A stretch of 64,000 bases of DNA from Dictyostelium discoideum (lineage: Eukaryota): NCBI GenBank assembly GCA_000004695.1, contig CM000152.2, positions 2,208,001 through 2,272,000 of the forward strand. Direction: 5' to 3'. The translations under genes were made by a program, and so were the position numbers. Shown in pieces: positions 12,986-39,159 of this stretch. The first letter of the stretch is position 1. Each line of letters begins with the position of its first letter. Below the pieces are notes generated by a model, which saw only the letters and a list, made by a program, of their open reading frames with translations, made no database searches and was not told where the DNA came from.

Positions 12986-13876
12986 ATGGAAGATAGAGGA
13001 AACCAAGATGGAGAAATTGAAGAAGGAATGATAGGTCAAGAAAGTTATGATGATATTAGAGAAAGAACCAAACAAAGGGAGTTAGAAAAATTAGAAAGAG
13101 AAAAGGAGAGTCAAAACTACAGATACAATAAAAGAGATTTCGACAGAAGAGATAATCATTATAGAGACCGTAACAGGGATGGACATAGAGATGGACACAG
13201 AGATAGAGATAGAGATAGAGATAGAGATAGAGATAGAGATAGAGATAGGGATAGGGATGGATATAGGGATGGACATAGAGATGGACATAGAGATGGACAC
13301 AGGGATAGGGATAGAGATAGAGACAACAGAAATAGAGATTTAAGAGACAACAGAAGTAGTAACAGAGACTTCAATAGAAAAGATAACCATAGAGATAATG
13401 ATAGAAGGGATAATGATAGAAGAGATAATGGCAGAAGATCCCATTCAAGATCAAGATCCAGATCAAGAAGTAGAGAACGTGATAGAAAAAGACAAAGAGA
13501 TCATAGTAGATCAAGGTCAAGATCAAGAAGTAGAGATAGAAGAGACGGTGGTGATAATGGTAGTAAATCAAATAAACAAAATGATAAGAATAATAAACCA
13601 CCCTCAAATGATAAATCACAACAAACCAATGACAAAAAGAAACAAAATCAATCAACTAAAGAAGGTGATCAATCAAATAATAATAATAATAATAATAATG
13701 AAAATGAGGAGGATGAAGATGACGGATTAGATCCTGAAACTAGAGAAATGATGAGACAAATGGGTGTACCCGTTAATTTCTCTTCAACAAAAGGAAAAAA
13801 GGTTGAAGGAAACTCACAAGGTGGTACAAAACTTCAATTTACAAGAGAGTATAGACAATTTATGAACAAAAGGTAA
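12986..13876 (+). CDS. U4/U6.U5 tri-snRNP 27-kDa protein (SNRNP27)-like, with an RD/RS dipeptide-repeat region and a conserved C-terminal domain.
   Basis: ATG at 12986 after a poly-A run. The product contains (RD)n and HRDG repeats, then RSHSRSRSRSRSRERDRKRQRDHSRSRSRSRSRDRRDGG, and ends ...ETREMMRQMGVPVNFSSTKGKKVEGNSQGGTKLQFTREYRQFMNKR*. This C-terminus matches the SNRNP27/DUF1777 end (...MGF.GFDSTKGK.V.G...........R.YRQYMNRKGGFNRPL). The stop overlaps a GTAACA, so a short extra 3' exon cannot be excluded. Confidence 0.6.
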   Translation: MEDRGNQDGEIEEGMIGQESYDDIRERTKQRELEKLEREKESQNYRYNKRDFDRRDNHYRDRNRDGHRDGHRDRDRDRDRDRDRDRDRDRDGYRDGHRDGHRDGHRDRDRDRDNRNRDLRDNRSSNRDFNRKDNHRDNDRRDNDRRDNGRRSHSRSRSRSRSRERDRKRQRDHSRSRSRSRSRDRRDGGDNGSKSNKQNDKNNKPPSNDKSQQTNDKKKQNQSTKEGDQSNNNNNNNNENEEDEDDGLDPETREMMRQMGVPVNFSSTKGKKVEGNSQGGTKLQFTREYRQFMNKR

Positions 13877-16743: not shown

Positions 16744-19700
16744 TTATTTTGAGGAAAATGTAAGTTGAGCAATTTCTTTAACCAAGATTTGATTTAAAAG
16801 AGATTGAGGAGATTTAATATCAAAAGAAATATTACCATCCTTTTCTTTCACCAACATTGCGATATGATGATTTTGAGTAGTTTTAGCATAAAAGGAAGCT
16901 GTTTGACCATTTGGATGAGCTTGTACAACTTCAATAGATAATTGTTGAGCAAGTTTTTCAATGACCAATGGCATTGTTAAGGATTGGCCAGTGATTTTAG
17001 TTGAATCCATTGCACTTACTTGACCTGATTTTTGAAGGATTTCAGCAAACTTATCTTTTGGTAATTTTGTAGCAACAATAAAGAATGAGAATGGTAAATC
17101 GATTGATAATTGATTTGTGATTGATGGTGAAGAGGATGGGGATGCCAATAAAGTGAATTGTAACTCTTGGCTATTCAATACATTGACAACATTCAATAAC
17201 TCTGTATGAGTAGTGGATGCATCAGCCTCCAATACACCAATTTCACCACTATTCTTTATGGAAACACATTGTTCTGCTGGATTCTTTAAACTAATTGAAA
17301 CATCTGACATATCTTCATCAGTTTTATTTTGTACTTTCATTGTTAACTTGATTTGATTATTATCTGTTTCATTTGATGGTGATACTTTAAGAATTTCACA
17401 TGTAATCTTAAAATTATCATCATCCAAAATTGTTTTTAATACTTTTTTGACAATTACTGGTGGTGGTGCTACTACAGCTGCTGCTGCTTGAGTTGATTTA
17501 GTAGTGGTAGTAGTTGAGGAGGTGGCTGCTGGTTTCTTGCTTGATTTTTTAGCAGTTGGTGGTGGTGGTGGATTTGAACCAGCAGCAGCTTTTTTAGTAG
17601 CTTTTTTAGCAGGTGCAATCTCTGGTGATGTAACTTCAGAATAATTTGCAGTTGATGGTGGTGATTTTGGTGATAGTTTTGCATTTTTCTTTGCCAACAT
17701 TGCCATTTCTCTTTCTTTCTCTTTTATGATATCAGTTCTATGACGAGAAGTATGTAAAACATCACTTGCGGTCAATGGTTCTGATAAGTTTATATTTGAA
17801 AGAGCATCATTTTTGTATTTGTTATCTTTTTCATCCTCATCATCAGATTCTTTTGCACCCTCTGGCATTTCAGTGGTAGTATCGATGGTATAATGTTTTT
17901 TTGTTTTTTTACTACCTTTTGATGGCATTGGTCTATTTGATGATGCACCAACATGAAGATGACCTAAATCACCAGTTAGTTGAACCACTGGAATATTTTC
18001 AGGATCATTGGTTGATAATTTCTTTGATACTTTACCACCCAACATATATGGATTATTAGCTTGTTTTCTTAATCTTTCTTCCTTTTGTCTTTGAATATCA
18101 ATTGGATGACGATTGAAATTACTACTTGAATGACCTGAATGAGAACTATTGGTTTCATCATCTTCATCATCATCACCATCATATCCTCCACGGTGATGTT
18201 TGTGATGTTTCTTTTGATGACTAGATGTACTTGTATTGAAAATATCATCATCTTCATCCTCTTCAATTGGTTCTTGATGTTTTGGATCATTAATCCATTC
18301 ATCTAAATCTAAACCTTCTGGAATTGGTACTTTCTTTTGAGCTTTTGGACCAACTGGATTTAATTGTTCTGTGAACAATGAAATTAACTCCTTTGAAATA
18401 TTATTACCTTGTTCTTTAGTGACTGTGTAGAATGATAATAATTCATTAATAAGACAAGCACGTTCTTGTACATTTAGGTAAATACTATGAGTGAAAATTG
18501 TTAAACGTGATTTAATAATTTCAAGACATTCTTGAACGATTTCATGAGTGATTTCATTTTGGTCCTCTTCTTCTTGTGCTTCCTCTTCCTCATCATCATC
18601 GTCTAATGATGGGATTTTGTCACCGTTTGCTTTTGCACAAGCATGAGAGAAAACTTTTAATGAATTTAACATGTAAACTGATTGAATATGTGATGGTAAT
18701 ACACAAACACGTGGTTGTAAGAATGCTTCCAATGCGTCTATTGGACGATTGACATAACCAGAGAACTCACCAACAATCCAAGCGGCAGCATATAAAACTT
18801 CACACATACCACCTTCGGTTGGATTTGACATGAGTTTTGGATTCTTTAATAGTTCAATCATTTGTCTGGTACTATAGGCACGTACGATCTTTACACGAAT
18901 TACAACGTCCAATAATTGAGAGGCAATTAATTTACCATGAATTGAATCTTGAATTTGTGATAATTTAACCAAGATATTGATATACCATTCGAAGTCGGTA
19001 ATGAATTGATAAGTGCCCATTGAGCATAGTTCAATTATTTTCTCGATGATTTGCTCTTTATATTGACCCTCTGCATTGTCTAAATGATCCAATAGTTTGA
19101 ATACGATATCACCGATGTTCTTCTTGCTGGTCATGCCTGGCAAGAGATCCAATGCTCTCAAACGGATGGAGATATCATCGTCCTCCAAACAATTCAACAC
19201 TAAATCCCTATGCTCTGACACAGCCTTTGGATGAATCTTCATAATGTTATTCAATGCCAATAGACCAAGATACTTTAAATTCTGGTCATTATGCTCGATC
19301 AATGTTCTCAACTTTGAAATACACAACTTCATCAATGGTATATGGTCAGACATACCAGTGATGCAAGTTTGAATGCACTCGTAAAGCAATGAAACCGATG
19401 GTGACGAATTGATAATGTTTGTGAGTGGGTCTATTAGCTTCTTGCCCAAACGTGGCTCGTGTGGTGTCAATGCTGCAAACAACTTTACAATCTTGATTAA
19501 CATCCAATAGTTGTTGGTGGTGTTGGTTAGAATTCTGAATAACACAGGTGCCAATGGTAAATAGTTCTTTGGATTTCTTCTGGCAAGTTCGCAAATCACA
19601 TTGACTGAGCATGATACAACCGATGGCTCGGGATCATCCAATTTCTCTCTTAACTTTGGGAATGCTGGTCTTAGCGATTCTGGATATCTCAAGAATATCT

Positions 19701-20036
19701 TATATAACACCGTGATGGCTCTCTTTAAAATATGTGTTTTTTGTGTACTCAATAATGTTAGGATATCATTTGCCAACTCTCTTGCTAAATCGGTTGTACA
19801 AATATTTGAAAGACAATTCAATGCTAAATAGGCTTCACTTTGATTCGATGATAAGAAATCCTTTCTAATTTGATGAGTTGCCAATACAATAACATCTGTT
19901 CCTTCATTAAAACTTTGTGATGCTGCTAAATATCCAATTCTTTTTGATGAAAATTTATTACAACTCATAACTTCAACAATTTTAAATGATGCCCAACTAA
20001 TATCAAATCCTAACATTTGAATCTAATTTTAATTTT

Positions 20037-24589: not shown

Positions 24590-27046
<2,457 letters not shown>

Positions 27047-29136: not shown

Positions 29137-29173
<37 letters not shown>

Positions 29174-29324
29174 TTGTATTAAATGATTTTAAAATAGTTT
29201 AATATATGTAAGGTTATTAAAAAAATAATAATAACCCCATCTAACTGATAAGAGTGAGTGTCTCTAACCTGATTTATTTTTGATTATTAATTTTTTTAAA
29301 ATTAGTAATTAATTCGGGACTTTC

Positions 29325-30381
29325 TTATTCATCATAATCTGCGGATAAAGAAATCTCTATATTAGTTTTTATTGAATCTTCAATCTCTTCCATTCTCATT
29401 TTTGCATATCTAATGGCATCAGATCCTAATAAAAGCATTGGTGATGGGTTTTTCAATAATGCAAATTTAATAATTGCAGTAGCACCTTTTTCTGGATCAC
29501 CTGGTTGTTTATTATTTAATTCTGAATCATGATACTCTTTACTTTTATTAACCAATGTGTATTCCTTAATAACTTTTGAAGGACGAACCAATACATCTTT
29601 TTGTAAGAAACAAGTACGGAAATAACCTGGATTAACAGTGGAAACATGAATTCCAAATTCTTTGAGTTCGATTCTTAAACCCAAACTTAATCCATCAATA
29701 GCAAATTTTGTAGAACTAAAAAAAAAATATTAATCAATTTGCAAAAAAAAAAAAAAAAAATTTAATCTAGATTTTTTATAATTATATATTATATCAATTA
29801 CCCATAAACTGAAAATCCTGGAAAATAATTACAAAATCCTTTATTTTTTTTTATAAAATAAATTTCAAAAGTTTTAATAAATAATAATAATTATAAAAAT
29901 TATAATAATAATAATAAATTAAGTAATAACTACCTGCAATAGATGAAATGTTAATAATACGTGGACCATCATCAAAGAATTTATTAGCACGTAAATGTGG
30001 TAAAGCACATCTTATTGTATTCAAAACTCCTTTAAGGTTAATATTAATATTTACATTAATATCACTTTCTGAAAATTCTTCAGTTGCTCCTTGAATACCA
30101 TAACCTGCATTATTAATTAAAATGTCAATTCTTCCAAACTTTGAAATTGTTTCATCAATTGATTTTTGAACTGAATGTTCGTCTCCTACATCAACTTGTA
30201 ATGGTAAAAAGTTTATTGAATTTCTAACTTCCTCATCAACACTTTTTATTAAGCCTTCCTTATTTCTACTAGTTGAAGCTACATAAAATCCATTTTTCAA
30301 TAATTGATTTGTAAGACATAAACCCAAACCCTTTGATGCTCCTGTGACATAGAAAACTTTTTTATCTTTTTGTGAATCCAT
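29325..30381 (-). CDS. Short-chain dehydrogenase/reductase (SDR, 284 aa). Exons 29934..30381, 29802..29817 (16-nt micro-exon) and 29325..29715.
   Basis: Exon 1 is MDSQKDKKVFYVTGASKGLGLCLTNQLL... (TGxxxGxG cofactor motif) ...ILINNAGYG...PRIINISSIAG|, with donor g|GTAGTT. The micro-exon ttttccAG|GATTTTCAGTTTATGG|GTAATT encodes GFSVYG. Exon 3 (acceptor tttAG|T TCT ACA AAA) is STKFAIDGLSLGLRIELKEFGIHVSTVNPGYFRT...SADYDE*. The micro-exon alone makes the total length (448+16+391=855) divisible by 3, and it supplies the catalytic Tyr of the Y-x-x-x-K motif (YGSTK). Introns are 116 and 86 nt. Confidence 0.75.
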
Positions 30382-31672: not shown

Positions 31673-31832
31673 ATGATAAGACAGATATATTATTATAAAA
31701 AATCATTTCCAATAATAAACCATTATACTAAATGTTTTCTATCAACATCCAGTAATGGAATTAATAGTGGAAATATAAACATTAAAAATAATCGCAATAT
31801 AAAAATTAATAATGAAGTTACAACTGACAATG

Positions 31833-31900
<68 letters not shown>

Positions 31901-32569
31901 TTTTTAAAAAATGAAAATATAGGAAATATAGAAAATAAAAATGAAAATAATAATAATAATTATAATAATTTAAAAAAAACCGAATCAGTTAAAAAAGAAA
32001 TTATAGCTATGTTTGAAGAAGATTTATATGAAAATGAAAATCAAAGAGAATCAATATTAAAATCATCAGAATTTCCAGAAAAGTCATCAAAAGATTGGGG
32101 AGATAGTGTTTTAAATTATTCACCATATATTAGAATGATTGGAGTTAATAAAATAGCAAAGATTATTAATCCATTAGAGAAATATTTGCTTTTAAAACCT
32201 CAAGAATATCGTTACAACTATTTATTAGATTGCGATAAATGGATTGATAAACAAGTAATTGAAAAACAAGTACAATCACAACTCATCAATTTCTTTAAAG
32301 TTTTAAATAAACGTGATCAACTTGAACTAAAAGAGATCACTTCAACTTGGTTATTTAAAATATTATCAACTTGTTCCAATCATTTATCAGAATATGATCA
32401 ATTAAATGTAAACTATCATTTCAATATCACAAATTTCATTTCAACTCAAAGAGGTTACATTTCATATTCTGCCAATAAAATATTTATAACTTTTCACTTT
32501 ACTTTTAATGGTAATAATTAATTATTTTTTTTACTTTTTTCCAAAAAAACTCTATAATTTAACTAATAC

Positions 32570-37749: not shown

Positions 37750-37771
37750 TTAATTATGATCTTGTTGCTGC

Positions 37772-37817
<46 letters not shown>

Positions 37818-39159
37818 GATGATAATCAATTAAATTATTATTTTCCATTAAATTAAATAATTGTAAATGATATGTATGAATTGAATCAACTAAAGTTGAA
37901 AAACTTTTAAATATTTCTCTTTTTTCTTTTTCATGATTTGATTTTAATTTAGCGATTGAAGTTCTAACAATATCTAATTCTTTAATTAAATGATCAATTT
38001 TAATTTGAGTTGATTCTCTTTCTTTTTCAATGATTGCTTTTTGATTTTTTAATTCACTTTGTAAATTGATTAATTCAGATTTCTTTGTTATATAGTTATC
38101 CCTATTCTTTTTAAGTGATTCATCGAGTGATAGTAGATCATCATTAAACTTTCTAATATCTATATCCAATTCATTGATTTGTCTATTTTGATCTTGGTTA
38201 ACTTTAGTAGCCTCTTTTGAGAGTTTTTTAGTGGACTTGTACAGTTTATTCTCCTTTTGATAAGTCTCAACCAATTCAAGAGTGGTGCGAATATTTTTAT
38301 TTATTTTTTCCAATTGTTTGGATTTATTTTGAAGTTTTGACATTGAGGGTTCAAATTCCTTCAAACCCTCTTTTTTAAGTGCCAATTTCTGTTTCATATC
38401 ATATAGCACCTTTTTAATTTTATCGGGTGATGGTACTATCAATACTTGCATTCTCGCGCACTCCTCAATCGTATTCTCAATGGAGGAGATTAAATTAAGG
38501 ATTTCCTGCTTGATTGATTCGTTTTTATTAGTTTTATTCAAGATGATTTTACATTGCTCATTTTGATAATGATTGGCTTGTTTTAAACGCTGATCGTCTT
38601 GTTGGTGTTGTTCTATCAATCCATTTACAATGAGGTCCTTTTCGTGCTTTTTCATCCTTTTATTCTCCAATTCTTCCAATAGTTTTTGTTCTTTTCCAAG
38701 TGTGATATCACGTTTTTCACAATTTGATTTATTTAATTTATCGAGATCAGAGTAGATCGATATCTTTAGTTCCATAAATTTGCCAAGGTTAATTATGCCA
38801 CTAAAGATTTTCTTTACTCTTGCCGCTTTTGGATTGTAGATATCTTTATAGGTGAAATCGAATAGTCCGACCACTTTCATCAGATTTGACATTGCTCTAA
38901 GGAATGTTATCTCTCCAATGGCTCCATCTTGTGTAAATAGTTCAATACCTTGTGTTAACTTATCCATACCATATTGACTGGGATGATGACTCGTTGATTT
39001 ATTATAGCCTGTAAATGTAACTAAAATATTTTCACAAAATTCTCTTATCATTGCTGATGTCGGTCGATTTAATTCTTCCATTGTAAATCTATGTCCCATT
39101 TCATCAAGACTTGTTATTATTTCATCATCTTCTAATATTGGAAAACTATATTTTGACAT
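37750..39159 (-). CDS. nuf2: Kinetochore protein Nuf2 (Ndc80 complex), 469 aa, single exon.
   Basis: The N-terminal CH-like domain is MSKYSFPILEDDEIITSLDEMGHRFTMEELNRPTSAMIREFCENILVTF...AARVKKIFSGIINLGKFME, comparable to human Nuf2 [23 protein letters not shown]...[20 protein letters not shown]. A long coiled coil and a C-terminal poly-Gln follow. The ATG at 39159 sits in A-rich context. Confidence 0.8.

Follow-up and report, generated by a model that had tools for sequence, protein, structure and literature searches.

Gene structure and identity of the locus

The question raised by this locus is how long the very short middle exon is that joins the two large exons of a short-chain dehydrogenase/reductase (SDR) gene: 16 nt, as proposed in the initial annotation, or 37 nt. 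The gene, DDB_G0279545, lies on the minus strand at positions 29325-30381 of the window (the whole 64,000-nt stretch of Dictyostelium discoideum DNA that was analysed, with an overall GC content of about 20% and a local range of 0.14-0.35), and has three exons and two GT-AG introns. The layout that we consider very probably correct, in which the 37-nt exon at 29838..29802 encodes G150-G162 and the proposed 16-nt exon is its 3' part, is as follows (slashes mark splice junctions):

Exon 1, 30381..29934, minus strand: 448 nt with the ATG at 30381, ending in phase 1 (...ATT GCA G/gtagtt); its coding sequence includes TGASKGLG, NNAG, Asn115 and, within NISS, the catalytic Ser147.
Intron 1, 29933..29839, minus strand: 95 nt, GTAGTT...ATAAAG, phase 1, after residue 149.
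Exon 2, 29838..29802, minus strand: 37 nt, GATTTTGTAATTATTTTCCAGGATTTTCAGTTTATGG, acceptor ...ataaAG/GATTTTGT...; it encodes residues 150-162, G-F-C-N-Y-F-P-G-F-S-V-Y-G (GFCNYFPGFSVYG), of which the first and last residues have split codons.
3' part of exon 2, 29817..29802, minus strand: the 16-nt exon of the initial annotation.
Intron 2, 29801..29716, minus strand: 86 nt, GTAATT...TTTTAG, phase 2, after residue 161.
Exon 3, 29715..29325, minus strand: 391 nt up to and including the TAA stop, coding for S-T-K165-F-A (with the catalytic Lys), PGYFRT and a C-terminal helical extension.

The reasoning that led to a middle exon was sound. Exons 1 and 3 cannot be joined directly, since their combined length (448 + 391 = 839 nt) is not divisible by three and the direct join shifts the frame and meets stop codons; the end of exon 1 in phase 1 was also obtained when the spliced frame was checked. 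The string ttttccAG/GATTTTCAGTTTATGG/GTAATT is present on the minus strand at 29817..29802, and insertion of its 16 nt gives 855 nt with an open frame of 284 codons, in which the Tyr stands four residues ahead of the Lys (Y-G-S-T-K, that is, YxxxK). The existence of a tiny middle exon that is needed for the frame and supplies the catalytic tyrosine was confirmed. Two details had to be amended. The gaps of 116 and 86 nt given for the flanking introns are those of the 16-nt boundaries, but with the 37-nt exon the upstream intron is 95 nt long. The active-site peptide had been written as NISSIAGGFSVYGSTKFA, a transcription with an extra G, and the 16-nt model actually reads NISSIAGFSVYGSTKFA.

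A database search with the 284-aa product returned as best match a D. discoideum protein of 291 aa. The translation of the 37-nt model agrees with KAM9949387.1 (P0001), from a newer D. discoideum assembly, at every one of its 291 residues (100% identity), and the 90% cluster of this protein also holds the AX4 entry XP_641691.1 / DDB_G0279545 / UniProt Q54WM6; the annotation of XP_641691.1 is 'short-chain dehydrogenase/reductase family protein'. The locus is a known, annotated gene, and its short middle exon was present beforehand in the public gene models, which are predictions and, in the case of the newer assemblies, may come from one annotation pipeline. The concern that an ORF-based gene model would miss the exon is therefore moot. 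By tblastn, the short exon was located at 29839..29801, and no paralogous SDR copy was found across the window. A literature search with the gene identifier DDB_G0279545 found nothing, and tRNA and Rfam scans of the whole window were empty.

Other long open reading frames in the neighbourhood are:

16744-20016, minus strand, long ORF.
24590-27046, plus strand, long ORF.
37750-39159, minus strand, long ORF.
12986-13876, plus strand, long ORF.
31673-32521, plus strand, ORF of 282 aa adjoining the SDR gene, with no Pfam match.

These neighbours include ordinary eukaryotic genes, with matches to SNRNP27, Nuf2, subtilase S8, and the N-terminal and C2 domains of adaptin. The local GC peak of 0.35, at 18-20 kb, coincides with the adaptin ORF. 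About 140 nt beyond the stop codon of the SDR gene lies a homopolymer stretch of about 45 A (29141-29190, read on the minus strand), a low-complexity sequence typical of Dictyostelium intergenic DNA.

Length of exon 2: homology and motif spacing

Gene models of the region were enumerated with GT..AG introns of at least 40 nt, one or two per model, and with boundaries within 30000..29680. Thirty of these models had an open frame. They were scored with an HMM built from 107 non-dictyostelid homologues (P0014-P0120), of which the named ones are bacterial and the rest metagenomic; since these source sequences are intron-less, the HMM is independent of the dictyostelid gene models. The model with the boundaries 29934/29838/29802/29715, i.e. 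with the 37-nt exon, ranked first of the 30 (345.4 bits), whereas the model with the 16-nt exon obtained 323.4 bits, 22 bits less. The remaining candidates were rejected. A 7-nt exon, which results from the third in-frame acceptor (29808), scored lower again (312.7-317.6 bits); models with the donors 29967, 29961 and 29991, or with the exon 3 acceptor 29685, all stayed below the score of the best model; and the best 25 of the 30 models were all of the two-intron type, with no single-intron model among them.

The difference between the two exon lengths falls in a segment that the homologues share. When aligned with 16 homologues from dictyostelids and bacteria, the 16-nt model has a gap of seven residues (GFCNYFP) against every one of them, and the consensus of these 16 sequences across the region is GFxGxFPGFSIY. 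When the 284-aa product was compared with the solved structures 3m1a and 4qec, a gap of six residues was likewise seen between NISS and the Tyr. Among the 124 homologues retrieved, the distance between the catalytic Ser and Tyr, counted from the second S of NISS, was always 13-15, and 118 of them had exactly 14, the spacing that the 37-nt model also has. In the 16-nt model the spacing is halved to 7, a value found in none of the 124.

Read in codons, exon 2 is ataaAG/GA TTT TGT AAT TAT TTT CCA GGA TTT TCA GTT TAT GG/gtaatt, and codes for the conserved motif FPG as well as for the catalytic Tyr161. The bases ttttccAG, previously taken for a polypyrimidine acceptor, are coding (TAT TTT CCA GG, Y-F-P-G), and the AG at 29819-29818 is internal and in frame, inside the codons CCA GGA for Pro-Gly.

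Conservation of exon 2 in other Dictyostelium genomes

The orthologous gene was compared in four other genomes, two of D. cf. discoideum and one each of D. citrinum and D. dimigraforme. Their exons measure 448, 37 and 391-412 nt, and the short exon is exactly 37 nt in 5/5 genomes. The 21 nt that had been called intronic are conserved like coding sequence, with 20-21 of 21 positions identical and a single, synonymous change (TTT to TTC); the other substitutions in exon 2 across the five genomes are mostly at third codon positions. The real intron, in contrast, diverges freely: in the four other genomes intron 1 is 91-247 nt long, and its sequence is unalignable all the way to the AG at 29840-29839. 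The donor of intron 2, GTAATT, is conserved in 5/5 genomes.

In the window intron 1 is AT-rich and contains an (ATT)n tract. Among the closely related genomes it consists largely of an (ATT)n microsatellite (window 29839-29933; locus L001, 1949-2195; locus L006, 1949-2121).

Taken with the public annotation, homology, motif spacing and between-species conservation all favour 37 nt over 16 nt. It is a general rule of 3' splice-site choice that the first AG is used, and a spliceosome following this rule would meet the AG upstream of the 37-nt exon before the internal one. Homology, conservation and the first-AG rule together point to the upstream AG as the acceptor that would be used in vivo.

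The predicted protein

Joined in this way, the exons of 448, 37 and 391 nt would encode a protein of 291 aa, an NAD(P)-dependent oxidoreductase of the classical SDR family. Alignment to PF00106, suggested beforehand as a check, gave a significant match: residues 8-193 of the 284-aa product matched adh_short with E=1.2e-42 and 146 bits (cut-off, 26.6), with YxxxK in place. For the 291-aa protein, the precomputed domains are PF00106 and PF13561. The cofactor motif TGASKGLG (TGxxxGxG) is found at position 13 and NNAG at position 90, and the catalytic tetrad N115, S147, Y161 and K165 occupies invariant columns in an alignment of 24 sequences, with the spacing of 14. The catalytic residues are spread over the three exons, Asn115 and Ser147 being encoded by exon 1, Tyr161 by exon 2 and Lys165 by exon 3. 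The enzyme is presumably active. It would prefer NADP(H), to judge from Lys17 (in TGASKGLG) and Arg39 (in TSR), residues that established SDR cofactor rules connect with this preference.

An AlphaFold2 model of the 291-aa protein had a mean pLDDT of 91 and a pTM of 0.90, with pLDDT values of 87-93 for residues 141-160. It places a strand at 141-145, a short helix at 148-152, a loop, and a long helix at 159-182. According to this model, exon 2 (residues 150-162) encodes the link from beta-5 to the helix that bears Tyr161 and Lys165, together with the first turn of that helix. The 16-nt exon would delete the link, and the residues lost would lie in the confidently predicted short helix and loop.

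The protein resembles other SDRs over nearly its full length. The putative dehydrogenase 3m1a of the PDB matched over residues 6-283 with E=4e-28; 3m1a and the oxidoreductases of Bacteroidota (Chitinophaga, Flavobacterium, Pedobacter) are classical SDRs with a C-terminal extension. TGxxxGxG, NNAG, the N-S-Y-K residues, PGYFRT and the C-terminal helical region are common to all of them. The bacterial genes are intron-less, whereas the Dictyostelium gene has two introns.

Alternative splice sites

Three other readings of the splice sites were weighed against the preferred one, the 37-nt exon between 29934 and 29715. The first concerns the donor of exon 1, which in the AX4 model lies 3 nt further downstream, so that exon 1 ends at 29931 (A/GTTATT) and the protein has 292 aa with the sequence IAGRFCNY. 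This is indeed the sequence of XP_641691.1 / DDB_G0279545 (P0121), which differs from KAM9949387.1 by one residue, an extra Arg at the junction of exons 1 and 2; the GTAGTT of the window offers tandem GTs, and the model keeps an open frame. The extra Arg is nevertheless an insertion relative to the non-dictyostelid HMM (339.8 vs 345.4 bits) and is absent from all other dictyostelid orthologues. The four other genomes have GTAATT or GTATGT at this place, without a second GT, and four newer D. discoideum or D. cf. discoideum models end exon 1 at 29934. We regard the AX4 donor as unlikely to be the right one; probably, as the comparison of orthologues suggests, the donor was called 3 nt too far downstream in the AX4 reference protein and its extra Arg is spurious. 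The sequence at 29928-29934 (GCAG/GTAGTT) can also be read as a tandem alternative donor.

The second reading accepts the 37-nt exon as the main form and takes the internal AG for a 3' splice site used as a minor alternative. This AG (TTTTCCAG/G) lies 21 nt from the upstream one and in frame with it, looks like a good, frame-keeping acceptor by metazoan criteria, and has a CCAG/G context that is conserved in 5/5 genomes. Constraint on the Pro-Gly codons suffices for the last observation, however, and the FPG motif, which is also found in the bacterial homologues, fully accounts for the conservation of CCAGG. The minor isoform, an in-frame product of 284 aa that lacks seven residues, would not be subject to nonsense-mediated decay, and its function would probably be lost or altered. 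The lack of a conserved structural segment in this product also speaks against the reading. Use of both acceptors is, in our judgement, rather less probable still than the AX4 donor.

That the 16-nt exon, with ttttccAG as its acceptor, represents the true or main transcript and yields a 284-aa SDR is extremely improbable: it keeps the frame, forms YxxxK, preserves a strong adh_short match and has a T/C-rich run ahead of its AG, but homology, motif spacing and conservation led to its rejection.

The 37-nt exon was also compared with micro-exons described elsewhere. Strict micro-exons measure 3-27 nt according to the definition used for animal neuronal genes, and broader cut-offs extend to at most 51 nt. 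Like micro-exons, exon 2 of DDB_G0279545 is very short and internal, has short flanking introns and encodes a functionally critical peptide. Unlike strict micro-exons it is 37 nt long and qualifies under the cut-offs of up to 51 nt only; a length of 27 nt or less was found solely in the rejected 16-nt model. Skipping of exon 2 shifts the frame, and the exon is therefore obligatory. It is constitutive by necessity, and nothing points to regulated inclusion. Literature searches for micro-exons and alternative splicing in Dictyostelium turned up nothing specific; one match just mentions the microexon-search option of TopHat.

Origin of the intron pair

The introns that flank the 37-nt exon are limited to the DDB_G0279545 orthogroup, i.e. 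D. discoideum, D. cf. discoideum, D. citrinum and D. dimigraforme. The orthogroup (loci L001, L004, L005 and L006) was compared with the paralogues (L002, L003, L007, L008 and L009), with the help of a neighbour-joining tree. In D. purpureum, D. firmibasis and D. citrinum the paralogues carry a phase-0 intron at NK/FF, introns at other positions, or none, and one D. firmibasis paralogue is intron-less. Since the introns occur in the orthogroup only and the nearest outgroup is bacterial and intron-less, two lineage-specific intron gains 37 nt apart are the most parsimonious account.

All named non-dictyostelid proteins among the best 120 database matches were bacterial, mostly from Bacteroidota (Chitinophaga, Flavobacterium, Pedobacter, Spirosoma), with 45-48% identity over about 98% of the length; no eukaryote other than dictyostelids appeared among the named proteins of these 120. 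As the nearest named non-dictyostelid relatives are all bacterial, the dictyostelid SDR subfamily may have had a horizontal origin. A fuller history, in which two introns were recently gained within one exon of an SDR that may itself have been acquired horizontally, and in which the internal AG perhaps serves as a low-level acceptor, is put forward tentatively and may well not hold as a whole.

Significance

Exons of 16 and 37 nt both restore the reading frame of DDB_G0279545, and homology and conservation alone separate them. A frame-preserving internal AG can therefore mislead a gene model built by eye, which matters mainly for the quality of annotation. For the dictyostelids themselves, the lineage-specific pair of introns around the exon coding for the catalytic Tyr provides a handy case for studies of intron gain.
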